Source: a virus
DNA length: 16,572 bases
Virus record (IMG/VR): IMGVR_UViG_3300013426_000031
Strand: one strand, 5' to 3'
Within the stretch, counting starts at the first letter, position 1. The number at the start of each line of letters is the position of its first letter. Positions 1 to 16,572 of the stretch are shown here, piece after piece. A program made the translations under genes and the position numbers. The notes beneath the pieces are model-generated. The model searched no databases and was not told the origin of the DNA. It worked only from the letters and a program-made list of their open reading frames with translations.

Positions 1-47
1 TATTCATCCCAATAAGGACCTCGCCACACCTTATAAATATCTTCCAT
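1..47 (-). CDS. 5' end of a gene that runs off the left edge of the window; only MEDIYKVWRGPYWDE... is visible
   Basis: An ATG sits at 47..45 on the minus strand, with GTGAGGG 6 nt upstream, and the frame stays open to position 1. A class I motif copy lies just upstream at 52-90. Confidence 0.35.
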   Translation of the reverse strand, partial: MEDIYKVWRGPYWDE

Positions 48-51
48 AATT

Positions 52-90
52 ACCCTCACTTTCTATATATATTATATCAAATTATTTATT
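52..90 (-). promoter_or_regulatory. Class I conserved intergenic motif, partial copy (putative phage promoter) upstream of the partial gene 1..47
   Basis: The plus-strand sequence cctcactttctatatatattatatcaaattatttattattt matches the core of the cassettes at 1848, 6018, 10935 and 14110 (tctttatatatatattatataat). This copy has no hairpin. Confidence 0.4.
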
Positions 91-1828
91 ATTTCGCAAA
101 TGGAACCGCAAAAACATAGTTAGGAACTTTAAGGATAGGTTCAGGAATTGGATTAAATTCTTTGCGCTTTTGCTCAATCTCTTTATCGCGCACAAACAAA
201 TACTTTTCTTTTTCAGTCATTTCATCTACATCAACGATATTACTTACTCCCCAGATGCCTTCAGTATGAACATCTCTATGAACTTTATCGGCCAAATCGC
301 CAAGGTCATAATCATCAAAGCAATTATCACAAACTTGGCAATCATATCTCAAAGTCTTAGCGCACGTCTTTTCTTTATTATAGACAACAATATCAAAAAC
401 ATTGCCGAATTTCTCAAAATCATCTTCTGCCCAATAAGTGTTATCACAAATAGTGCAAGTAGTAAAATGGTCTTGCGCACAATAATCACAATAATGCTCA
501 TTATCATGCCAATACATTTCATCTACATCGAAATAACCACCACAATCATAACACTTAGCAAGACCATAGCAACTATAACAGATGACCGCACTCGAGCCAT
601 CAAATGATTCTTCATCATCAAGCTCTTCACCGCAATCCATACACTCAGTCTCGCCAGAATAATTAATCATATTAATACTGCCATAAATAAGATTATCACT
701 TACATAAGCCAAATGCTCGTTATAATAATCATTATACATAAATTTTGTAGCCATTTGGAATGTTGCAGTATTATTCGGCAAATTAATCTTTTTACCAGAA
801 GCAACGGAATATACGTTGGGAAAATAAGACCAATTCATATTCTTTTCGGCAAGCTCTTTAATCCATTTGAGAACAAAATTGTTAATATCACTATTATGAT
901 AAGGATATTCTTTAATAGTGGTAATAATATCTTTATTCACAATATAAAGACAACGCCATTTCTTATTAGACCAAGTGCGCTTTTCAGTAGAGGAGGGACG
1001 TGCCGGGTCATTACAAAGAGGGTAATAAGGATGGTCCGCGTTTACATATGCCTCAAGGACGACGGCGCTGTTCATCATTTCAACTGTGCCCATACGATAA
1101 TCGCCGACGCTATACCAATTCATGCAACTATCCCAATTACAAGCATTATCGCTCATAGTAAGATAATCCAGGGGATGGATAGATAAACAAACATTACCAT
1201 CAATTTCGCTTGTATTAAGAACTTGAGAATGCCAAATACGGAACTTTTCAAATTCTTCTTTATCCAGTTCAAACCAATCAACAAGCTTTGACATAATGCG
1301 CATAAGCTTCATGCTCTTATCAATCTTCAAAGGCTTACCATTATAATGCGGGCCTCGGTCAAAGATAAAATAATTAACATCTCTATATTTCTCATTATCA
1401 ATAGAATTACGAACAAGAGGCCCATAATCAGTAAGGTCGCTAAGCATGTACCAAATCATCTTATGATTGACATTACTTGGGTCATTGCTTAAATTCCAAT
1501 CACTAAAGTAATCATTGCGGATTTTGAAAAAACTATTTACAAAATAATTGCAGGTTTCAACTTTATCATCTTCGCCAAACATTTCATCAATCATTTTTTC
1601 AAGTTCATCATCACTCTTGGTATAATGAACTTTATTAGAGATAATAATATGACCGCCTAAAAGCTTAAAGAGGTCCTGTTTATTATTATTCCAAAAGCGC
1701 AAACGATACTCAATGGGCGTGCGCGCATTAGGCGCCGAAGTATCATACATCGAGTGCATATACATATTTACATAATCAGTCAACAGTTCTTTTTCTTCTT
1801 CGGGAATGAGCGTAATTAAATCTTCCAT
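89..1828 (-). CDS. Hypothetical 579-aa protein; the C-terminal ~140 aa carry at least 7 CxxC pairs (likely zinc ribbon / zinc finger cluster)
   Basis: The listed ORF is 89..1852. That start lies inside the promoter/RBS, so I prefer the ATG at 1828 (MEDLITLIP), which has GGAGA 8 nt upstream. The C-terminus reads CMDCG..CYSCYG..CYDCGG..CDYC..CTICD..CQVCDNC. Confidence 0.75.
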   Translation of the reverse strand: MEDLITLIPEEEKELLTDYVNMYMHSMYDTSAPNARTPIEYRLRFWNNNKQDLFKLLGGHIIISNKVHYTKSDDELEKMIDEMFGEDDKVETCNYFVNSFFKIRNDYFSDWNLSNDPSNVNHKMIWYMLSDLTDYGPLVRNSIDNEKYRDVNYFIFDRGPHYNGKPLKIDKSMKLMRIMSKLVDWFELDKEEFEKFRIWHSQVLNTSEIDGNVCLSIHPLDYLTMSDNACNWDSCMNWYSVGDYRMGTVEMMNSAVVLEAYVNADHPYYPLCNDPARPSSTEKRTWSNKKWRCLYIVNKDIITTIKEYPYHNSDINNFVLKWIKELAEKNMNWSYFPNVYSVASGKKINLPNNTATFQMATKFMYNDYYNEHLAYVSDNLIYGSINMINYSGETECMDCGEELDDEESFDGSSAVICYSCYGLAKCYDCGGYFDVDEMYWHDNEHYCDYCAQDHFTTCTICDNTYWAEDDFEKFGNVFDIVVYNKEKTCAKTLRYDCQVCDNCFDDYDLGDLADKVHRDVHTEGIWGVSNIVDVDEMTEKEKYLFVRDKEIEQKRKEFNPIPEPILKVPNYVFAVPFAK

Positions 1829-1847
1829 ATTATTATCTCCTTTATTT

Positions 1848-1900
1848 CTCATTCTTTATATATATATTATATAATATTTTTATATAAAAATAAATAAAAA
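1848..1900 (-). promoter_or_regulatory. Class I conserved promoter-like motif (copy 2), driving gene 89..1828
   Basis: ctcattctttatatatatattatataatatttttatataaaaataaataaaaa is near-identical to the copies at 6018, 10935 and 14110. Read on the minus strand it contains TATAAT with an AT-rich upstream region and no clear -35. Confidence 0.55.
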
Positions 1901-1928
1901 CCTCTTAGTCATTTCACTAAGAGGTTTT
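1886..1928 (-). terminator. Rho-independent terminator ending the unit 5983->1947
   Basis: The hairpin has stems cctcttagt and actaagagg (9 bp) with loop catttc. On the minus strand a U-run (TTTTTATTTATTTTT) follows. It lies just 3' of the stop codon at 1947. Confidence 0.65.
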
Positions 1929-1946
1929 GAAAGGAGGTGAACGCTC

Positions 1947-3362
1947 TCACTTCTTCATGCTATTCATCATGAACATCAGAGGAAGTAAATCATTTTTATC
2001 TGAATTCTTATCTTTCGACAAGAAATACAGCATCATAGGATTAAATTCGGCGGATGCGCCACTCATCATGGAAGACATCATCATCATAGTCATAAGGTCA
2101 GAATCCTTATTATCGTCATCCATCATAGCAAACATCCACATATTACCAAGAGGATTTTCAGTAGAAGGAGCCATCATCATATTATCAAACAGGCTTACAA
2201 TCTTGGTAAGGAAACTAAAGCCAAAGGGCGACTTATTAGGAAGAATTGTCTTTTTCTCACCAAGCGCAATATCAATTACAATTACATCACCCTGCTCGGA
2301 AAATCCAAAAACAAAGCAGGGACGTCTATTAAAGATAATAAGGTCGCCTGCGCCTACCGCATCAACAGCAACAGGAATCTTATAGAAGAAGTTATTACCA
2401 CTAAAGTTCATAACATCAACATCCATCATTTCGCCGTTTACCTTGTCATATGCCTGATAAGTGCCTGTGCTATTCTTAACTGCAAGACCATAGGGCGACA
2501 TACGAATATTATCATTATCCTTAATCGGACCAAAATCAAAATTAAACATCTTCATTTTATTATCCTCTTTCTTATTATTACTCTCTGTCTTCAAGCTATT
2601 TTCTAAAGCATTTAATCTATCATCAATTTTATTTACTTGTTCTTGCTTCGCGAATTTATCTGTCTCAATGCTTATTGAACCATACTCGGCAGGCTGAACA
2701 GTTCCGATAGTCCAATCGGCACTATTTAATTTGTTCCAATCAATATTTGTCTTGGTCGTCGTGGTATAATCCCAACAAGGTACTGTAGCTGTTGTCGCGG
2801 TTGTATCCATATTATTTTTCTCCCTTTCTTCTGGGAAAAGTTGATAATAAAGAATACGCGCGCCTACTGTCTGATTGGCTTTATAATCCTTATTTTCATC
2901 TTGTGAACCGCAATTCCATGCCTTATCATACTGCATTGGATTGCCCATCATATCCAAATCATGAAAATAACAATTATTATGAAAATAAGTTTTTACAAGA
3001 TAATTACCAAAATTATTATCCTCGCGAAAATTAAGATGATAAACGACTCTATACTGTCTTGTAAAATGTTTATCGGCAAAAGTGCTTTTATTATAAGCTT
3101 CAATAATTACATCATCAGGATAGAATGGCTCTATCATAGAAGTTTCAAAATAAACTACCCAATAATCATAATCATGTTTAAAATTTCGCCAAGTATTATA
3201 TTCAACCTTAGCATAATTCTTATCGCTTACAAGTTTTGTATAAGGAGCAAGAACCTGTTCACGCCACGCACTTCCTTCAAAAACTTTTCCATCGGCAATA
3301 GCATCATAGATTCGCCAATATGGCTGAAATCCTGTGCCACTCGGTTTAATCCATGCACCCAT
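1947..3362 (-). CDS. Hypothetical 471-aa multidomain protein: N-terminal globular region, Thr-rich linker (TTATTATVPCWDYTTTTKT), coiled-coil segment, C-terminal domain and a Met-rich C-terminal tail
   Basis: The ORF is long and its start overlaps the upstream stop (TAATG at 3362). The tail reads DLMTMMMMSSMMSGASAEFNPMMLYF...LMFMMNSMKK. Confidence 0.75.
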   Translation of the reverse strand: MGAWIKPSGTGFQPYWRIYDAIADGKVFEGSAWREQVLAPYTKLVSDKNYAKVEYNTWRNFKHDYDYWVVYFETSMIEPFYPDDVIIEAYNKSTFADKHFTRQYRVVYHLNFREDNNFGNYLVKTYFHNNCYFHDLDMMGNPMQYDKAWNCGSQDENKDYKANQTVGARILYYQLFPEEREKNNMDTTATTATVPCWDYTTTTKTNIDWNKLNSADWTIGTVQPAEYGSISIETDKFAKQEQVNKIDDRLNALENSLKTESNNKKEDNKMKMFNFDFGPIKDNDNIRMSPYGLAVKNSTGTYQAYDKVNGEMMDVDVMNFSGNNFFYKIPVAVDAVGAGDLIIFNRRPCFVFGFSEQGDVIVIDIALGEKKTILPNKSPFGFSFLTKIVSLFDNMMMAPSTENPLGNMWMFAMMDDDNKDSDLMTMMMMSSMMSGASAEFNPMMLYFLSKDKNSDKNDLLPLMFMMNSMKK

Positions 3363-3583
3363 TATCTACTATACCTTTCCCAAATCATATCTTCTTCCGC
3401 GGGGGTGAGATAATCAAGACCATATTCATGGCACATATTATCAAAGTTCTTTTCCACATATCCACGCGGATATTCATTCATTTTATTAATAAGAGTATTA
3501 ATTCTACCCAGCTTTGTATCGACCATGCCAGTTCCTTCTGCCTCGTTTATATAAAGCCAATAGCTATCATTAAAACCAAACAT
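3362..3583 (-). CDS. Hypothetical 73-aa protein
   Basis: The ATG at 3583 has AGGAG 10 nt upstream. The stop shares a TAATG overlap with the downstream start. A class II promoter lies directly upstream. Confidence 0.6.
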   Translation of the reverse strand: MFGFNDSYWLYINEAEGTGMVDTKLGRINTLINKMNEYPRGYVEKNFDNMCHEYGLDYLTPAEEDMIWERYSR

Positions 3584-3610
3584 AGAATTTAACTCCTTTA
3601 TTCTTTATAT

Positions 3611-3645
3611 AAATATTATACCAAAAAATTTTTATTTTTTCAAAT
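3611..3645 (-). promoter_or_regulatory. Class II sigma70/sigmaA-type promoter: -35 TTGAAA (3643..3638), 17-nt spacer, extended -10 TGgTATAAT (3624..3615)
   Basis: Read on the minus strand: TTGAAAaaataaaaattttttggTATAAT. The same architecture recurs at 8438-8470. Confidence 0.55.
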
Positions 3646-3646
3646 T

Positions 3647-4228
3647 CTACTTAACTACAATAGTTCCTTCCGGGCGTTTTTCATATGTAAATTTGCCCGG
3701 CATATAATTCCTAATATCCCAATTAGGATTCTGCATTTCCTCTACAATTTTCTTTGTATTCTCTGCGCTTTCGGCGATTGTTTTCATGCTCTTCTCGCGC
3801 AATAGATTACATTCATTTTCCATAAGCGCGACAAATTCAAGACCTTCTTGATTCTTTCTCATTTCCTTCTGGCGCTTCTCTCTGTCTAAATAAAAGCGCA
3901 TATACTTTCTGTAATCACTATACTTAGCAAATTTAATATAAAAGAATGCGCGCTCCTCAACACCCCAAATAGTTCTATACTTTTCACGTTTTTCTTTTGG
4001 AATTTCATAATAAATTTCTTTAGAACCAATAGACCACTTATCGGGGCAAATACTATAGAATTTAATAAACTGATCATAAGTAAGAATAGTCTTTTTGCGC
4101 TCTTGATGATAAATATTAAATTCATCATTCATATCATTGTATGCTTCTTTATATTTATTATAATTACAAAGGAGAGTAATACCCAAAATAGATAACGCAC
4201 CGGCAATAAGTAAAATAATAAATACCAT
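3647..4228 (-). CDS. Membrane-anchored 193-aa protein: one N-terminal TM helix and a Lys/Glu-rich charged C-terminal domain
   Basis: The ATG at 4228 has GAGGAG upstream. The N-terminus MVFIILLIAGALSILGITLL is hydrophobic. Confidence 0.7.
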   Translation of the reverse strand: MVFIILLIAGALSILGITLLCNYNKYKEAYNDMNDEFNIYHQERKKTILTYDQFIKFYSICPDKWSIGSKEIYYEIPKEKREKYRTIWGVEERAFFYIKFAKYSDYRKYMRFYLDREKRQKEMRKNQEGLEFVALMENECNLLREKSMKTIAESAENTKKIVEEMQNPNWDIRNYMPGKFTYEKRPEGTIVVK

Positions 4229-4231
4229 CTT

Positions 4232-4573
4232 TTACCACTCCTCAAAAATCTTAATCAGTTTCTTTTGATTTGCTTCTTGATATCCACCAAAACTTAAATC
4301 CAAAAAATAATCAATCATCATATTAGTAAAACCTTGGCCACTAATCTTATGGCAAGTATGTACCTCACCATCCCACATTAAATCACTATAATATTCATCT
4401 TCCCATTTAATTAGACGCCCGCGCCAATTATGTCCCTTATATGTCCAACAGCAATCATCAATGGTAGTGCCGTATTTCATAAGATTATTATGGAGTCCTT
4501 CGGCTTCTTCTTGAACTTTCCTATATAGATTAAACACATAATCGGCAAGTCCATCAAATGCAAAATCCTTCAC
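4232..4573 (-). CDS. Hypothetical 113-aa protein (GTG start)
   Basis: A GTG at 4573 has AGGAGG 7 nt upstream and overlaps the end of the upstream gene. Confidence 0.55.
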   Translation of the reverse strand: MKDFAFDGLADYVFNLYRKVQEEAEGLHNNLMKYGTTIDDCCWTYKGHNWRGRLIKWEDEYYSDLMWDGEVHTCHKISGQGFTNMMIDYFLDLSFGGYQEANQKKLIKIFEEW

Positions 4574-4811
4574 TCGGCATCCTCCTTTTAAATATGCTAT
4601 AATCTACAAGAGGTTCCGCAATTACTGGAACATCATCACGGCGCCAACAAAGATAAACAGTATCGCCATTCTTTGTTAAAGTAAGTTGATAGGTATGGCC
4701 ATTCTCTTCGGTGCATCTATTATAAAGAATACTACCATAAGTTAGACATTGGGTATAGCGTTCTTCAATAAGTCTATCATATATTTCAAGAACTTTTTCT
4801 TCATCTATCAT
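4554..4811 (-). CDS. Hypothetical 85-aa protein
   Basis: The ATG at 4811 overlaps the upstream stop (ATGA). Confidence 0.55.
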   Translation of the reverse strand: MIDEEKVLEIYDRLIEERYTQCLTYGSILYNRCTEENGHTYQLTLTKNGDTVYLCWRRDDVPVIAEPLVDYSIFKRRMPSEGFCI

Positions 4812-5116
4812 ACGTAGTGTTTCAAATATTCTTCATAAGTTGTAATCCACTCACAATAAAGACACTGATTATTAATAAACAATGCCAAATAAACAGCACC
4901 GGTATCTCTTTTAATTACTTTGGCATTAAAAATACTACCATGATACTCTTTATCGCGGTCAATAAGTATTTCATGTTCAAACAACATAATAGTATTATAA
5001 CAATCTCTTGCACGTTCCGATGTCCAATTAACTGTCTTCAAAAGCTTTTCATATCCTTCATCGGTATCCGCACCAAGAAGGAATGTAATAAAATCATTTC
5101 TATTATCCAACTTCAC
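4808..5116 (-). CDS. Hypothetical 102-aa protein; the start codon is uncertain (GTG at 5116 or TTG at 5110)
   Basis: There is no in-frame ATG near the 5' end. GAGGTG lies upstream of the TTG. Confidence 0.5.
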   Translation of the reverse strand: MKLDNRNDFITFLLGADTDEGYEKLLKTVNWTSERARDCYNTIMLFEHEILIDRDKEYHGSIFNAKVIKRDTGAVYLALFINNQCLYCEWITTYEEYLKHYV

Positions 5117-5813
5117 TACACCTCGTCAAATAAGTAATCTTTTGCTTTTGGAAAGTATCAAGATTTTTGATAGTGCCTTTAATACGGTGTTCACTACCTA
5201 CTTCCCAACTTTTAGCTGATGTATTCCAACAGTAAAGGTTATCATATACATCAACAAATGTCATAAAATGGCTAATGCCGTAATAGCCTTCTTTTTCAAT
5301 ATTTTTAACAACAGTTAGAGTGCGCTCAATCTTCTCGCCGACTTCACCTTGCCATTCGCTTGTGCCTTCTTCATACACAAGGTCTTCAATAATCTTTTTA
5401 ATTTCCTTATCACTCTTCAAAGAGCCATCATCATTTCCCACATATTCCCAATTAAGGCGAACCGGCGTAATATCTTCGGGCATATCATTCGGCAATTCAT
5501 CAGTGGATACGATATACCATCCCCACAATTTAGCATATCGCGCGATTGATTTTTCAAACCATTCAAGGTTTGCGTAAGTATTGCCTTTAAAGATAGTAAT
5601 ATAACCCTTTTCAAATCCAAGAACTTGCTTTCTATTGGAAGGTTTGATAATTTCTACTTCAGGATAATAACGTGCATACTCGGTATCAGTATAGCTTTTA
5701 ACGCGCTTAACCTTGCCATCTTTAGTGCGCACATCGCAGTAGCGCTTACCATTTTCAATATAAGTATCACGAACAATCTCAAGGTCTTGATAAGATTTGG
5801 CAACCAGCGCCAT
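5103..5813 (-). CDS. Hypothetical 236-aa protein
   Basis: The ATG at 5813 (MALVAKSYQ) has GAGGAGGG upstream. The listed ORF instead begins at a TTG at 5819. Confidence 0.7.
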   Translation of the reverse strand: MALVAKSYQDLEIVRDTYIENGKRYCDVRTKDGKVKRVKSYTDTEYARYYPEVEIIKPSNRKQVLGFEKGYITIFKGNTYANLEWFEKSIARYAKLWGWYIVSTDELPNDMPEDITPVRLNWEYVGNDDGSLKSDKEIKKIIEDLVYEEGTSEWQGEVGEKIERTLTVVKNIEKEGYYGISHFMTFVDVYDNLYCWNTSAKSWEVGSEHRIKGTIKNLDTFQKQKITYLTRCSEVG

Positions 5814-6017: not shown

Positions 6018-6065
6018 CTCATTCTTTATATATATATTATATAATATTTTTTTATAAAAATAAAG
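6018..6065 (-). promoter_or_regulatory. Class I conserved promoter-like motif (copy 3)
   Basis: ctcattctttatatatatattatataatatttttttataaaaataaag matches the other class I copies. Confidence 0.55.
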
Positions 6066-6722: not shown

Positions 6723-6850
6723 TCTTCTTCCTCCTTATCCTTCTTCTTATGGAAAGGCCAAATAGGAAGATTAGCATCGGCGCGGTAATTCGCCCACTGA
6801 AGAAAACCGCACAAGCCAATAGCAATTACAAGAATAAAAATAGGGTTCAT
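6719..6850 (-). CDS. 43-aa small membrane protein (MNPIFILVIAIGLCGFLQWANYRADANLPIWPFHKKKDKEEEE)
   Basis: It is not in the ORF track. The ATG at 6850 shares an ATGA overlap with the stop of the MetK-like gene. GGAGAG lies upstream. Its stop TGA shares an ATGA overlap with the next start. Confidence 0.45.
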   Translation of the reverse strand: MNPIFILVIAIGLCGFLQWANYRADANLPIWPFHKKKDKEEEE

Positions 6851-7953
6851 CTTAAACTCTCCTTTATTTCATCTACTTTATCAAGTCGTTCCCAAGGACT
6901 ATTACACTCCGGTCTGCCGAATTGCCCAAAACAAGCATACGGAAGATACTGAGTTTCGCGCAAATCAAGATTATTGATAATAGCTTTACCATTATAATTA
7001 AATGTAATGTCCGCGATTTCTTTAAGTTTTTCTACGGATACTTCTGGATTAATTGGATTAAGATTAATCTCAAAAGGCTTATCCCATTGCGCAGTATAAG
7101 CCAACTGAACAGTCATAGCATCACATGCACCTGCAGCGACAAAATTCTTAGCAATATAGCGTGCCATATAAGTGCCATAGCGCCCACAATAATTAATGCT
7201 CTTACCATAGCCGTTTACGCCCATCGGGCAATAAGAACCATAAGCATTTTCTACCGCCTTGATGCCGGACACACCAAAAGTATCGGGAATATCAGATAGG
7301 GGATTAACATAGAATCGGCAATTCTTATCCACTTCATATCCAAGAGTAGCAATATTGCAAATGTTAGTAATGTCTGGGATAATATCCTGTGGGTCTTTTA
7401 CATCTTTGTATCTAATACTATATACAATACTATCAATACACTTGAATTTACCGTCTTCGTATCGCGCACTTACTTGGCATCTACCGTAAGGTAATGCCCA
7501 ATATAGCTCTTGCTTCTGCATTTTACTAAATGTAATTACTGAAATATTTTGGGCAGTAATTTGCGCAATAGGCATAAAATCAGTAGTCTCATTACAAGCA
7601 TAACCATATGCCGGTCCATATTCCCCACTACCAATATCTTCGACAAACCAATTTACATCGGTTCTAATGTTGTTGATAAATATACAAGTATTACAGTTAA
7701 AACCAGCTACATCATTATTATATCCAATAAAACGTAATGTTTCTTTTGCAATTTCTTCATAAGGAATAGTCCTATTTATCTGTCCCACTACCCCAGATAA
7801 AATAACTGTATTAGAGAAGATACTACAATGAATATTAATTAATGCATCGCAATCAAATTGTAAAATATAATCAGTAATACTTTCTACTATTTGGTCGCAT
7901 ACTTTATTGTATTCTCCAGAGAAACTACTTGAACAAGTATAATAGTTATTCAT
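6847..7953 (-). CDS. Divergent S-adenosylmethionine synthetase (MetK/MAT) homolog, 368 aa, with substituted catalytic motifs (possible pseudoenzyme)
   Basis: I aligned it by eye to E. coli MetK across all three domains:
- TCSSSFSGEYNKVCDQIVESITDYIL against [26 protein letters not shown];
- LRFIGY against VREIGY;
- GSGEYGPAYGYACNETTDFMP against [21 protein letters not shown];
- YEDGKFKCIDSIVYS against YDDGKIVGIDAVVLS;
- YMARYIAKNFVAAG against AARYVAKNIVAAG;
- FGQFGRPE against YGHFGREH. Confidence 0.72.
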   Translation of the reverse strand: MNNYYTCSSSFSGEYNKVCDQIVESITDYILQFDCDALINIHCSIFSNTVILSGVVGQINRTIPYEEIAKETLRFIGYNNDVAGFNCNTCIFINNIRTDVNWFVEDIGSGEYGPAYGYACNETTDFMPIAQITAQNISVITFSKMQKQELYWALPYGRCQVSARYEDGKFKCIDSIVYSIRYKDVKDPQDIIPDITNICNIATLGYEVDKNCRFYVNPLSDIPDTFGVSGIKAVENAYGSYCPMGVNGYGKSINYCGRYGTYMARYIAKNFVAAGACDAMTVQLAYTAQWDKPFEINLNPINPEVSVEKLKEIADITFNYNGKAIINNLDLRETQYLPYACFGQFGRPECNSPWERLDKVDEIKESLR

Positions 7954-7954
7954 T

Positions 7955-8398
7955 TTATTCCTCTCTTTTAACTACTTCATCTAATTCAACTATACAAGCT
8001 TTTGCAAAATATTCCCAATTTGAATAATTTTTATCATTCCAATCATAATATTTTAATGCTGTATGCGCTGAACATCTTTCTTGACTATAAAATGTACTTC
8101 CATCCATTTCAATAGGAAAATAATAATTATCTTTATCTCCATAAGGGGTTCTAATAATTATATGTTTATATAAAGCTTTACCTTCTTTATCACATCTATT
8201 AACTGTATAAGTACAATGATTAATATAATCTTCAACCATTGGATTAGTTAAGTCTTTTTTACCAAAATATTCTTCTGCTATTTCCTTTAAAATAGAACTA
8301 ATTAAAAATTGCTGATTCTCTTTATTTCTTTTATTACTAATGAATTCTTTAATTAATTCATCTTTAGGATTATAAAATTTATATTTTAAATAAGTCAT
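7955..8398 (-). CDS. Hypothetical 147-aa protein; very AT-rich gene
   Basis: The ATG at 8398 is the first gene after the class II promoter. Its stop lies 1 nt before the MetK-like start. Confidence 0.6.
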   Translation of the reverse strand: MTYLKYKFYNPKDELIKEFISNKRNKENQQFLISSILKEIAEEYFGKKDLTNPMVEDYINHCTYTVNRCDKEGKALYKHIIIRTPYGDKDNYYFPIEMDGSTFYSQERCSAHTALKYYDWNDKNYSNWEYFAKACIVELDEVVKREE

Positions 8399-8437
8399 AT
8401 TTCTTTTATATATTTTCTTTCTTATTTATTTTATATA

Positions 8438-8470
8438 TAAATTATAACAAAAATTTTTTCTTTTTTCAAA
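8438..8470 (-). promoter_or_regulatory. Class II sigma70/sigmaA-type promoter: -35 TTGAAA (8469..8464), 17-nt spacer, extended -10 TGTTATAAT (8449..8441)
   Basis: Read on the minus strand: TTGAAAaaagaaaaaatttttgTTATAAT. It matches the consensus and resembles the site at 3611-3645. Confidence 0.6.
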
Positions 8471-8480
8471 TAATTATTGA

Positions 8481-8511
8481 AAGAATAAAACGCAAAGCGT
8501 TTTATTCTTTC
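8481..8511 (-). terminator. Stem-loop terminator, likely bidirectional, ending the unit 10920->8502
   Basis: A perfect 11-bp stem (gaataaaacgc / gcgttttattc) closes a 3-nt loop, with A/T tracts on both sides. Confidence 0.55.
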
Positions 8512-8753
8512 ATGGACACTGCATAGTTGCATCCAGTGCGGAACCAGCAGGCTCGAAGGAACTCTTCGTATGTGGAGTACTCATCTTTATGTTCCGGCCA
8601 CCATTCACGGGCAAGGTCTTTAACAAAACCGCATGCTATCTTACGCAATTGCTCTTGCGAAAAGTTGGCATCGCAACAAACATTATCCTTCTCACCAAAA
8701 GGTGTCCAAGCTTCAATAAACTTTTGAGTTAGAGTAAATTCCGGCGTTTTCAT
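8502..8753 (-). CDS. Hypothetical 83-aa protein; GC-rich relative to its surroundings
   Basis: I prefer the internal ATG at 8753 (MKTPEFTLTQKF), which has AGGAGG upstream, over the listed 102-aa form. The listed N-terminal extension overlaps the upstream gene and has no RBS. Confidence 0.55.
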   Translation of the reverse strand: MKTPEFTLTQKFIEAWTPFGEKDNVCCDANFSQEQLRKIACGFVKDLAREWWPEHKDEYSTYEEFLRACWFRTGCNYAVSMKE

Positions 8754-8992: not shown

Positions 8993-9054
8993 ATAAATTA
9001 TCCTCCTTTGCCCAAATGCGCTTGCAATTCTTCAAAAATTTTTGTATAATATAA

Positions 9055-9519: not shown

Positions 9520-9585
9520 TTAATAATTATAACATAAATCAAATAGTGCAACGAGAATAATTAGAATAAAAATAATATATTCCAT
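9520..9585 (-). CDS. Candidate 21-aa hydrophobic micro-ORF (MEYIIFILIILVALFDLCYNY)
   Basis: The ATG at 9585 has GGGAGAA 6 nt upstream. It stops just before the RBS of the downstream membrane protein. This call is speculative. Confidence 0.2.
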   Translation of the reverse strand: MEYIIFILIILVALFDLCYNY

Positions 9586-9586
9586 T

Positions 9587-9925
9587 TTATTCTCCCATTG
9601 TTTGGTCATTTACGAAATCATTTACCGTATTCCAAAAGTCAAAAGAATAAGGCGACAAAAATGCGTGGTCGGGCAAAACAGCAACCTGTGTAATACCAGT
9701 CTTAGTGTCAATCATTTCAAACACTACTGCGCATCTATTGGCGCTTCCATCTTCATAAGTAAAATGCTGGAAAGCTTGCACACGAATCTTAAAACGACCC
9801 TGCCACTTTTCATCTTCTTCAATATTTTTATTCATTGCGCGAACAGTCTTCATAATCTTGCGCTTAAGGTTATTCTTGCTATGTGCGCTACGCGAGGCAC
9901 CCCAAAATGCATAATCTTCTCTCAT
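9587..9925 (-). CDS. Hypothetical 112-aa protein
   Basis: I prefer the ATG at 9925 (MREDYAFWG), with AGGAG 9 nt upstream, to the listed GTG at 9934. It shares an ATGA overlap with the upstream stop. Confidence 0.6.
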   Translation of the reverse strand: MREDYAFWGASRSAHSKNNLKRKIMKTVRAMNKNIEEDEKWQGRFKIRVQAFQHFTYEDGSANRCAVVFEMIDTKTGITQVAVLPDHAFLSPYSFDFWNTVNDFVNDQTMGE

Positions 9926-10934: not shown

Positions 10935-10985
10935 CTATTCTTTATATATATATTATATAATATTTTTATATAAAAATAAATAAAG
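10935..10985 (-). promoter_or_regulatory. Class I conserved promoter-like motif (copy 4)
   Basis: ctattctttatatatatattatataatatttttatataaaaataaataaag matches the other class I copies. Confidence 0.55.
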
Positions 10986-14109: not shown

Positions 14110-14156
14110 TCTCTTTTATATATATATTATATTATATTATTTATAAAAAATAAAAG
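14110..14156 (-). promoter_or_regulatory. Class I conserved promoter-like motif (copy 5, slightly diverged)
   Basis: ctcttttatatatatattatattatattatttataaaaaataaaagg matches the other class I copies. Confidence 0.5.
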
Positions 14157-14481: not shown

Positions 14482-14699
14482 CGGATACCCTCCACAATAG
14501 ACTTAACTTTTTCAAAGAGGCAATTAAGTTCGGTGCAATCTTGCTCAATATAATTAAAATTCTTTTCGATGGGTTCGGCATGCGCATCATGGACATCACA
14601 GCCCAAATTGACAAGCGCGCCTGTCATATCATCTACGTATGCCAGAAGACGCAGGTAATCATCTTCGGCAATCTTATGTTTCTTTTGGAAAAGTTTCAT
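14478..14699 (-). CDS. Hypothetical 73-aa protein
   Basis: The ATG at 14699 has GAGGAG 8 nt upstream, inside the 3' end of the ligase gene. Confidence 0.6.
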   Translation of the reverse strand: MKLFQKKHKIAEDDYLRLLAYVDDMTGALVNLGCDVHDAHAEPIEKNFNYIEQDCTELNCLFEKVKSIVEGIR

Positions 14700-14701
14700 A
14701 A

Positions 14702-16039
14702 TTAAAGCTCCTCTGCGATAGTTTCATCAAGCGGATTTACATCAAGAACGGCAATGTTCTTGAGAAGTTTGTAGGAAAAGTTTTTATGCTTATATGCAGT
14801 AAAAGAAGGCTTATCAACGAGACGAATTACAACACCTTCGCGCACATGACGAGGGTCGATAAGTTCAGGACCATCATAATATTGTTCCGCCTTATGGAGT
14901 ACCCATTCACCTGCAGAAATGGTATCATCTTCATCGCATGCCGGATGCTCGGGGATATAACCGCGCCATTCAACAGGTACAAATTTTACGCCCATTTGCT
15001 CACAACGATAGCGCACATAAGAAGGCGGGTATTCAATAGTATAACCGCTTTCATCGGTATAAGTCATACGATATACCCAGAAGTCATTCTTGGGGCCATT
15101 TACTCCAGTAGGATCACAGCCATAAGAGAAAGTAGTGGTATCGCCGTATTGCTTAATGAATTCTTTATCGCCGGTTTTCTTATTAGATACAGTACCCATA
15201 ATCGGCACACCATCATCAGTATATCCACAGATTTCCATAAAGATTTCTTCGTTTTTATGAAGTTTACCCTTAATTGCTTCAAAGGCATGACGGCGAAACT
15301 CATTAGAGCCATAGAAACCGCCGTCCCAGTCAGTAATCAAAGTGCGTCGAGTGCCATTAATATAGTCATATTCATAAATGGGTTTGCCGGAACGCTTAAA
15401 GAGACGGTCTAAAAGAGAACGGTGATAGCCCTTTAAGACGGGGAAATAACCAATACGATGGCTTGTACCGTCGAGTTTACGCGTAATTTCAATAAGATCA
15501 CCCGGTTTAAAAGCATTAAGATTGTATGCCAACTGGGCCGTGTCCACGTGTTCTGTAAAAAGAGGAGCAATAGGATCTTTGTGCTTGCGCGTCTTGCTTA
15601 CATTAGGGCCATTGGTCTTTGTTTTGTTGGTGCGGGGAATATACTTTTGGCAAATAGGATGACCATTAAATTCGCTTACAAGGTCGCCTACTTTGAGAGT
15701 ATTAATATCACCAAAAGAAGAAAGACAAGAAAGCGGAAGATACGTGCCGTCAGACGGCTCACCGCGCAAACGAATAGTGCCTACGTTGCGCTTGTCGGCA
15801 TCAAGGTAGCCGGTATCCTTTTCGCCCTTTTGGTTCTTACGGCATAGATGATTTATATCACAGAAAACGGCATCAAGCTGAAGTCCAGTGGGAAAATAAA
15901 TGCCGATATCGCCTACCTTAACATCAAGAGAAACGCAAGTATCATTGCCGAAGAAAGTAGCAATTTGAAGGCGGTCGGCGTTGCTATGCGGGCGCAGATC
16001 TTTTACTTTAACAATATAACCACAATGATTAATATCCAT
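14702..16039 (-). CDS. ATP-dependent RNA ligase-like nucleotidyltransferase (Rnl family), 445 aa, with a ~180-aa N-terminal extension
   Basis: The covalent nucleotidyltransferase motifs are present:
- motif I: ITRKLDGTS (putative adenylylated Lys);
- motif III-like: EIFMEICGY;
- motif IV: EGVVIR;
- motif V: YKHKN.
The ATG at 16039 has AAAGGAA upstream. Confidence 0.62.
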   Translation of the reverse strand: MDINHCGYIVKVKDLRPHSNADRLQIATFFGNDTCVSLDVKVGDIGIYFPTGLQLDAVFCDINHLCRKNQKGEKDTGYLDADKRNVGTIRLRGEPSDGTYLPLSCLSSFGDINTLKVGDLVSEFNGHPICQKYIPRTNKTKTNGPNVSKTRKHKDPIAPLFTEHVDTAQLAYNLNAFKPGDLIEITRKLDGTSHRIGYFPVLKGYHRSLLDRLFKRSGKPIYEYDYINGTRRTLITDWDGGFYGSNEFRRHAFEAIKGKLHKNEEIFMEICGYTDDGVPIMGTVSNKKTGDKEFIKQYGDTTTFSYGCDPTGVNGPKNDFWVYRMTYTDESGYTIEYPPSYVRYRCEQMGVKFVPVEWRGYIPEHPACDEDDTISAGEWVLHKAEQYYDGPELIDPRHVREGVVIRLVDKPSFTAYKHKNFSYKLLKNIAVLDVNPLDETIAEEL

Positions 16040-16099
16040 TTATATCAATTCCTTTCAAGTCGAGAGGCAATAAATGCCTCCCGATGGTTGTTTTAAGTG

Positions 16100-16249
16100 T
16101 TAGTTAATAGGAACAAAGAAGGCAATGCTTTCGGTAATCCAGCGCATTTTTTCGGTGTCGTAGTAAAGAACACGGAAATTATTACCTTCGTCTCGGAAGA
16201 TTTGAGCAACGTCATATGTCTTTCCGTCTACGTTATTTTTCATTTTCAT
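16100..16249 (-). CDS. Candidate 49-aa protein (MKMKNNVDGKTYDVAQIFRDEGNNFRVLYYDTEKMRWITESIAFFVPIN)
   Basis: It is not in the ORF track. The ATG at 16249 has GGAGGAA 6 nt upstream and overlaps the 3' end of the upstream gene by 17 nt. Confidence 0.35.
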   Translation of the reverse strand: MKMKNNVDGKTYDVAQIFRDEGNNFRVLYYDTEKMRWITESIAFFVPIN

Positions 16250-16547
16250 TGTTATTCCTCCATAAGATATCAAATGTGTTTCGGCCCCATGTATAGTTTG
16301 TCGTGAAGCCTTGCGCTTCCAATAGATTAGAAAGTGTTTTTACTGTGTAGTTGGTTGAACTTTCGCGGTCTTCGTCGGCAAGCGCAAATGAATAGATATA
16401 GTTGCCGTTTTTGGCGCTTTCTAGAAGAGCAGGTGTAATTTCATCGATAATTTGACGCGCACGTTCAGTTGCTTTATTTTGTCTATCTTTTTCGGTCAAT
16501 GCGGTCAAATTTCTTGCTTGTTCATAAAGAGATATATTTAAACTCAT
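16233..16547 (-). CDS. Hypothetical 104-aa protein
   Basis: The ORF has an ATG at 16547 but no clear SD. It is in the same orientation as the operon. Confidence 0.5.
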   Translation of the reverse strand: MSLNISLYEQARNLTALTEKDRQNKATERARQIIDEITPALLESAKNGNYIYSFALADEDRESSTNYTVKTLSNLLEAQGFTTNYTWGRNTFDILWRNNNENEK

Positions 16548-16572
16548 TTTGTAAGTGGAGACTTTTAGTCTC

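Follow-up and report, generated by a model that had tools for sequence, protein, structure and literature searches.

Two near-identical sites on the minus strand of a 16,572-nt stretch of viral DNA (IMG/VR record IMGVR_UViG_3300013426_000031, analyzed at its full length and referred to here as the window) resemble bacterial promoters, and they raise the questions (i) whether they are functional promoters for a bacterial RNA polymerase carrying a housekeeping sigma factor; (ii) whether the same design is kept in related phages and recurs in others; and (iii) how these class II sites relate to the class I blocks of the same stretch, which share their -10 element.

Two promoter-like sites in gene gaps of the window

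The original prediction had placed two consensus sigma70/sigmaA promoters, each composed of TTGAAA, a 17-nt spacer with TG, and TATAAT, at 3611–3645 and 8438–8470, and had described them as similar to each other outside the hexamers. Both cores lie inside these ranges (Table 1), and the likeness does extend beyond the hexamers: 26 of the 29 core nucleotides are identical, and both sites run on as TATAAT-wTwTATATAAA. At either site the -35 element, TTGAAA, agrees with the TTGACA consensus at five of six positions, the -10 element agrees at all six, and the spacer of 17 nt falls within a criterion of 17 ± 1. The spacer of site 1 is AAATAAAAATTTTTTGG (3637–3621), an A-tract followed by a T-tract, and that of site 2 is AAAGAAAAAATTTTTGT (8463–8447). 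The extended -10 elements are TGg at 3623–3621 (TG itself at 3623–3622) and TGt at 8449–8447 (TG itself at 8449–8448), respectively. Measured against the TRTGn motif, both sites have T-17, T-15 and G-14 but carry a T in place of the purine at -16 (T-T-T-G).

Sites 1 and 2 are the only matches of the window to the pattern TTGAAA-N14-TGN-TATAAT, whereas dinucleotide-preserving shuffles contained a mean of 0.01 matches and none of 200 shuffles reached two. A loose hexamer scan of the window (33% G+C) returned 101 promoter-like sites as against 79 in shuffles, and loose matches are therefore uninformative in AT-rich DNA. The minus strand carries nearly all genes of the window, and no more than about 900 nt (roughly 5%) is non-coding. 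Both sites are located in such gaps, have the orientation of the genes and are followed at a short distance by start codons.

Site 1 occupies the gap 3584–3646, beginning 3 nt past the TAG stop codon (3647–3649) of a 193-aa ORF. Its predicted +1 is the A at 3608, 7 nt counted from the -10 element, and the leader of 25 nt that would follow contains the Shine-Dalgarno sequence AAAGGAG (3599–3593), with the ATG of the 73-aa ORF 31 nt beyond the -10. Folding of the flanking sequence revealed nothing terminator-like upstream of site 1, and because of this we place it inside a longer unit, as had been proposed for this copy. The 471-aa protein encoded by the second gene behind it has an extremely methionine-rich C-terminal half, and its sole deposited relatives are gp39 of Bacillus phage G and a human faecal phage fragment. 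The stop codon that precedes site 1 is the only TAG among those of the 36 minus-strand ORFs of the window (TAA 24, TGA 11, TAG 1), and a TAA follows it five codons further on.

Site 2 lies in the gap 8399–8501, with a predicted +1 at the A at 8434, an A-rich leader of 36 nt and an ATG 42 nt beyond the -10; no clear Shine-Dalgarno sequence was seen in this leader ahead of the 147-aa ORF. The strong stem-loop reported before this copy is indeed present and very stable relative to shuffled sequence (Table 1). It overlaps the TAA stop codon (8504–8502) of a 102-aa ORF, is kept except for a loop difference in the relative L001 (see below), and looks like a terminator, though the T-run past the stem is weak. 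The statement that this copy heads the unit containing the MetK-like gene also stands, the 147-aa ORF and then the MetK-like gene following downstream of site 2. An Rfam search of the window gave no match, and no SAM riboswitch was found ahead of the MetK-like unit. A structured regulatory leader was considered and rejected, as the leaders fold no better than shuffles.

Table 1. Promoters, class I blocks, hairpin and associated genes in the window (position 1 is its first nucleotide; ranges in the last column are given in reading direction)
Feature	Position	Strand	Details
Third promoter, same build as promoters 1 and 2	71–99	minus	TTGCGA 99–94, 17 nt, TGa, TATAAT 76–71, then ATATATAGAAAG
Class I block	1852–1894	minus	TTTATT, 17 nt, TATAAT 1871–1866, ATATATATAAAGAA; after terminator 1928–1897
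471-aa ORF, second gene behind promoter 1	1947–3362	minus	terminator 1928–1897 after it
73-aa ORF, first gene behind promoter 1	3362–3583	minus	ATG at 3583; no family match
Promoter 1 discriminator and start region	3584–3614	minus	AT-rich, ATTTATATAAAG
Promoter 1 core	3615–3643	minus	-35 TTGAAA 3643–3638, 17-nt spacer, -10 TATAAT 3620–3615
Class I block	6022–6064	minus	TTTATT, 17 nt, TATAAT 6041–6036, ATATATATAAAGAA; after hairpin
MetK-like gene, 368 aa, second in promoter 2 unit	6847–7953	minus	Pfam S-AdoMet_synt N, M, C
147-aa ORF, first gene of promoter 2 unit	7955–8398	minus	ATG at 8398
Promoter 2 core	8441–8469	minus	-35 TTGAAA 8469–8464, 17-nt spacer, -10 TATAAT 8446–8441
Stem-loop just 5' of promoter 2	8478–8512	minus	16 bp, -19.7 kcal/mol, z = -7.6
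Class I block	10938–10980	minus	TTTATT, 17 nt, TATAAT 10957–10952, ATATATATAAAGAA; after terminator 11013–10981
Class I block	14112–14154	minus	TTTATT, 17 nt, TATAAT 14131–14126, ATATATATAAAAG; after terminator 14181–14152

Conservation at orthologous junctions and recurrence in other phages

When the complete window was compared by megablast with 50,697 phage records, no match was obtained, and an exact-sequence look-up of its 587-aa protein likewise found none. The following relatives were compared: (i) L001, part of a 155-kb IMG/VR contig, with a 471-aa protein 75% identical to that of the window; (ii) L002 and L003, IMG/VR relatives in which this protein is 39% identical; and (iii) L038 and L040, near-identical sequences from 184-kb ENA contigs, recognized by an identical MetK-like protein and an identical 104-aa protein, respectively.

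Sites 1 and 2 are unchanged in the L038 and L040 contigs. L001 is collinear with the window across all seven promoter-like elements of the minus strand (see below) and has both promoters at the orthologous junctions, where 28 of the 29 core positions match in promoter 1 (9720–9748) as well as in promoter 2 (4565–4593). The site 1 gap is 95% identical to its counterpart in L001, compared with 53% and 82% for the flanking genes, and the site 2 gap is 96% identical, compared with 79% and 89%. Since the gaps are better conserved than the neighbouring genes, this non-coding DNA is under selection. In the more distant L002/L003 lineage, TTGAAA-17-TATAAT still precedes the 73-aa orthologue and metK, the TG having been lost in L002, and the 73-aa orthologue stands directly behind the promoter in L001, L002 and L038.

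The MetK-like protein of the window aligns over its full length with solved MetK structures (E = 2e-40), while conserved motifs are altered (GHPDK to GEYNK, GAGDQG to GSGEYG, GGGAFSGKD to GVNGYGKS). This MetK homologue may be inactive as an enzyme; GHPDK is retained in the L002 version. The metK gene of L002 (4141–6263) contains an intein-like insertion (CVNGDTEFLT ... ITGN/C) and an in-frame TAG (4201–4203) in precisely the place of the conserved Gln in GHPDK-x-x-D-Q, an arrangement implying that TAG is read as Gln in the L002 lineage. In L040, the sequence just past window position 16572 (1–5350) holds divergent genes with promoters of the form TTGAAT or TTGATT, TGn and TATAAT, and a 530-nt intergenic region therein (3779–4307), with the direct repeats ATGAGTTTTTTTAACA... 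(three copies) and CAACTATTAAAAATTACCC (two copies), may be an origin or control region.

The same design recurs far beyond these relatives. A core with 26 specified bases, TTGAAAAAA-n-AAAAA-n-TTTTTG-n-TATAAT, was found in 19 IMG/VR stretches representing about 14 distinct contigs of 34–174 kb; its flanks are unrelated between contigs, and downstream there is always either a ribosome-binding site with an ATG, or tRNA genes. When 185,579 species genomes were searched with a slightly tighter pattern, no more than four contigs matched, each belonging to a metagenome-assembled genome (MAG) of Firmicutes (Ruminococcus, Acutalibacteraceae, Erysipelotrichaceae and Clostridia). These contigs are phage-like and carry tRNA arrays, and their MAG assignments may reflect mis-binned phage contigs. 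In three MAG-binned contigs with an identical promoter core (L023 4081–4155, L024 854–950 and L025 5814–5885), the tRNA arrays include a tRNA with anticodon CTA, i.e., an amber suppressor, as would fit stop-codon-recoding phages (bioRxiv 10.1101/2021.08.26.457843). Six contigs (L008, L011, L012, L014, L023 and L026) encode related proteins of 129–147 aa that begin 49–57 nt after a perfect core; this protein, present in at least six phages, has a lysine/arginine-rich middle, an acidic tail and no family match, and could be a DNA-binding protein made early and in abundance.

Statistics over the pooled loci (330 kb) point in the same direction. They contain 196 distinct TTG-N20-TATAAT sites, compared with about 16 expected by chance from base composition, and 138 distinct TTGAnn-N17-TATAAT sites, compared with 2–11 at each other spacing between 10 and 25, both counts being partly inflated since many of the loci were fetched for containing the motif, although only about 35 sites served for fetching and most are independent of it. 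The comparison of spacings is the cleanest of these controls. An ORF start lies 10–90 nt downstream of 55% of the pooled sites; the corresponding share is 13% for random positions and 10% when the orientation is reversed. Only 9% of the sites fall inside same-strand ORFs, as opposed to 48% of random positions. Information additional to the hexamers is found at A(-23..-20), T-17, T-15 and G-14 (66%) and in ATATATA-n-AAA after the -10; the A-tract and the T-tract of the spacer are conserved as A versus T, i.e., beyond a mere preference for A/T. Position -16 is T in 50% and A in 43% of the sites. No UP element was seen in the pooled sites, the information content being close to zero from -20 to -1 relative to TTG.

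Pfam and PHROGs searches of the genes behind the promoters (those of 73, 471 and 147 aa and those of the other phages) assigned no function, with the exception of one HPr-like match in another phage; therefore, gene function is unable to settle the timing of expression. Behind the motif stand tRNAs, small genes without a known function, and genes resembling MetK and gp5.9, a cargo that is only suggestive of early expression. Around a tail-fibre-like gene in L035, where long stretches are without standard-code ORFs, a search for a late-gene promoter type yielded no motif.

The class I blocks and further elements

The original prediction counted two consensus promoters. Both exist, but the window holds at least three, as a third site of the same build is present at 99–71. 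Its -35 element overlaps the last codons of the 587-aa ORF, and the next ATG is at 47–45; in the orthologues, TGa-TATAAT is kept whereas the -35 varies (TTTGTA in L001, TCGAAA in L002). Together with the class I blocks, the minus strand of the window thus displays seven evenly spaced elements that share TATAAT and an AT-rich start region, three having TTG and TG (class II) and four having TTTATT and neither G (class I), and the resulting transcription units are 2–3.5 kb long. The 193-nt gap at 16040–16232 contains no promoter of either class. It belongs to the RNA-ligase gene region (14500–16500), where G+C is 0.41–0.44 as compared with about 0.33 elsewhere and the negative GC skew is lost; this region may be a recent acquisition.

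Class I had been described as lacking a -35 element. This is correct insofar as there is no TTG, but TTTATT stands exactly 17 nt upstream of TATAAT, and elsewhere this position is occupied by TTGATT. In seven other phage contigs, the class I core (AAAATATTATATAATATATATATAAA) is preceded by TTGATT at a distance of 17 nt, and TTGATT is the commonest -35 of the pooled set (39 sites). Because TTGATT precedes the same core in other phages, we regard class I as a G-free version of the same architecture. Relative to the complete form, TTGATT has become TTTATT and TGn has become TTA, so that both G's that contact sigma are replaced by T. The two classes share TATAAT and the sequence downstream of it, and in a hybrid located just outside the end of the window, TTGAAA precedes the class I spacer, TG being absent. 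A hairpin precedes each of the four class I blocks.

Every site belongs to the same class in the window as in L001 and in L038/L040. At the corresponding junctions of L002, G-free blocks follow hairpins where class I is expected and TTGAAA is found where class II is expected; the TATAAT of its class I blocks has drifted to TATAAA or ATAAAA, with the flanking AT block retained. As class identity is conserved position by position, the distinction between the classes is maintained by selection. This argues that the classes differ in function. The class I -10 lies within a perfect 14-bp palindrome, ATATTATATAATAT (e.g., 1862–1875 and 10948–10961), which the class II sites do not have; it could be bound by a dimeric protein, or could be mere AT-rich repetition.

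Two further elements were observed in gene gaps. On the plus strand, opposite to all genes, TTGCAA-17-TATAAT occurs at 9022–9050 within the gap 8993–9054, which is almost identical in L001; the element holds the palindrome CAAAAATTTTTG and, by its orientation, may be an antisense promoter aimed into the 151-aa gene. On the minus strand, an apparent 76-nt gap contains a hydrophobic mini-ORF of 21 codons (9520–9585, MEYIIFILIILVALFDLCYNY) with its own GGAG, which is likely to be a gene for a small membrane peptide because the substitutions in L001 are conservative.

Readings of the two sites and known promoter systems

Taken together, these results make it likely, in our estimation, that both sites are functional promoters for bacterial RNA polymerase with a housekeeping sigma factor (sigma-A, of the sigma-70 family). 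The sigma70/sigmaA reading originally given to them is strongly supported by statistics, position, orthologous conservation and recurrence, and remains a prediction from sequence. They are very probably real, strong housekeeping-type promoters in a large uncultivated phage of Firmicutes. The window genes have strong GGAG-type ribosome-binding sites, and their best phage matches are to Bacillus phages; because of these two features and the Firmicutes MAG matches, the host is taken to be a member of the Firmicutes and the sigma factor, hence, sigma-A. As a -35, a TGn and a perfect -10 are all present, the promoters should be very strong. Against the sigma-A reading stand the lack of an UP element, the T at -16 and the lack of a clear Shine-Dalgarno sequence for the 147-aa ORF.

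At both sites, sigma region 4 would contact TTG, region 3 would contact TG and region 2 would capture TATAAT, followed by an AT-rich melting and start region with an A at the predicted +1. The conserved spacer, in which an A-tract passes into a T-tract, probably determines how the two hexamers are placed relative to each other or how the DNA bends between them, and minor contacts may be made there as well. From promoter 2, transcription would resume past the terminator-like hairpin and cover the 147-aa ORF, the MetK-like gene and the small genes that follow, and promoter 1 would supplement read-through into the 73-aa and 471-aa genes. The design is common to a wide range of large (about 120–185 kb) uncultivated phages of gut or rumen Firmicutes, in which it precedes small genes without a known function and tRNA genes. 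The analogy with phages T4 and T5 points to expression of these genes by the unmodified host polymerase soon after infection.

The sigma-70 promoters that phage T5 uses early, such as PN25, P25 and P26, are very strong; their spacer is AT-rich and has AAAATTTTT-like runs just before TG-TATAAT, and a conserved sequence downstream affects promoter escape. The sites described here resemble them in both the spacer and the conservation downstream, but the phages and their host groups are unrelated and the downstream motif is ATATATA-n-AAAG. The early promoters of T4 (Pe) combine UP, -35, TGn and -10 elements in an 'uber' promoter for unmodified E. coli sigma-70 polymerase (Hinton 2010, PMC2988021), have further consensus regions, and out-compete host promoters (PMC2988021; PMC2613000). 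Like Pe, the promoters of the phages studied here occur in many near-identical copies per genome, unite the -35, 17-nt spacing, TGn and -10, have a consensus reaching past the hexamers, and stand before small early genes, often paired with a preceding stem-loop; unlike Pe, they have TTGAAA or TTGATT as the -35 and no conserved UP element, and the host is probably a Firmicute. Gram-positive sigma-A promoters with an extended -10 (the '-16 region', TRTGn) have been described by Voskuil and Chambliss, as reported in PMC2613000, and sites 1 and 2 share with them T-17, T-15 and G-14 upstream of a consensus -10, whereas at position -16, where TRTGn has a purine, both sites have a T and the family consensus has a W.

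A further precedent is provided by the promoter-early stem-loop (PeSL) cassettes of T4-type phages, in which a terminator hairpin and an early promoter lie between small variable genes (PMC2839356, PMC4122927). This anatomy is present at site 2 (hairpin 8512–8478) and in all four class I blocks, but site 1 has no hairpin. T4 middle promoters, in which the sigma-70 -10 is kept but a MotA box substitutes for the -35 (PMC2988021), are comparable to class I alone, and not to sites 1 and 2: the -10 is retained, the -35 contact is lost and the upstream block is conserved and phage-specific. They differ in that no MotA/AsiA counterpart was found in about 36 kb, and in that the upstream block of class I is a G-free normal -35 with its spacer.

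This last comparison bears on the possibility, raised in the original prediction, that the classes are temporal, with class II read early by unmodified host polymerase and class I requiring a phage activator, a phage sigma factor or a modification of the polymerase. The loss in class I of precisely those G's, two in number, through which sigma makes specific contacts, the site-by-site conservation of class identity (the window, L001 and L038/L040, and the junctions of L002), the position of the class I -10 inside ATATTATATAATAT and the T4 middle promoter precedent (PMC2988021) are all in agreement with such a split. Yet members of both classes are interspersed, in alternation, within a single co-directional run of small genes and have TATAAT and the start region in common, the same core is elsewhere a complete TTGATT-17-TATAAT, the TTGAAA/class I hybrid exists, and a difference in strength alone explains the data equally well; the roughly 36 kb analyzed of the 184-kb genome contained no recognizable gene for an activator, a sigma factor or a polymerase. 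We therefore entertain a temporal division only tentatively. It appears very unlikely to us that recognition of the promoters, sites 1 and 2 among them, falls to a sigma factor encoded by the phage or to a polymerase modified by it, with near-housekeeping specificity in either case, so that they would not be early promoters of the host enzyme only. Conservation of the whole 29 bp, spacer included, and the rigid spacing do exceed what is typical of host promoter sets, but the hexamers, spacing and TGn are exactly those of primary sigma factors, small unknown genes and tRNAs are typical early cargo, and the strong early promoters of T4 are equally over-conserved although the unmodified host enzyme reads them (PMC2988021). 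No sigma-like ORF was found in the pooled genome fragments with queries for RpoD regions 2 and 4, a weak test given that it covered fragments of genomes only and that phage sigma factors diverge strongly.

The cassettes might also double as points of homologous recombination at which gene modules are shuffled between phages in the manner of PeSL. The hairpin-plus-promoter of site 2 and the class I blocks would be the clearest cases, the same 26–29-bp core lies beside unrelated genes in many phages, terminator-plus-promoter units occur every 2–3.5 kb among small unknown genes, and the RNA-ligase segment has a distinctly higher G+C (0.41–0.44 versus 0.33), all of which is compatible with the PeSL precedent (PMC2839356, PMC4122927). 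We nevertheless consider this unlikely, as all seven sites keep their order between the window and L001, no insertion, deletion or replacement bounded by a cassette having been found in the collinear stretches compared, and as the recurrence follows equally well from convergent selection for an optimal promoter. Chance resemblance in AT-rich DNA, without promoter function, could be argued from the 33% G+C of the window and the loose-scan counts, but it has a negligible probability in view of the two exact matches where 0.01 were expected, of intergenic conservation above that of the flanking genes, and of the recurrence of the core in the correct orientation at a fixed 17-nt spacing; the conservation, shuffle and spacing tests effectively refute it. 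A joint reading, which we regard as rather doubtful, combines several of these elements: the spacer would be a recognition element in its own right, class I would be the same cassette retuned for a phage factor, and the two together would form a two-state promoter code. The near-invariance of all 29 bp would then reflect more than an optimum for sigma-A. It builds on the observation that the spacer A6-n-A5-w-T5-G and the strict 17-nt length are kept across many phages in unrelated gene contexts; the spacer could be read through its shape by RNA polymerase, or by a host or phage protein on the AAAAATTTTT palindrome. Such a code would be maintained at each site in a large clade of Firmicutes gut phages, some of which use TAG as a sense codon.

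Host-type recognition of both sites by sigma-A, which we prefer, puts them among the strong host-type promoters of phages, a well-known kind, here in a region of a large phage that looks early, and in this respect the result is solid but ordinary. It nevertheless supplies a map of transcription units for a region whose genes are barely annotated, as well as a sharply defined promoter consensus, TTGAww-N17(..AAAA..TnTGn)-TATAAT-ATATATA, for an uncultivated clade of Firmicutes phages. This consensus can help both annotation and assignment to a host phylum, and argues against Bacteroidetes hosts. The promoter may, in addition, serve as a portable strong promoter in gut Firmicutes that are hard to manipulate. 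Finally, the fact that G-containing and G-free versions of one design are each maintained at their own sites offers a clean and testable case of how a phage tunes or times its transcription.
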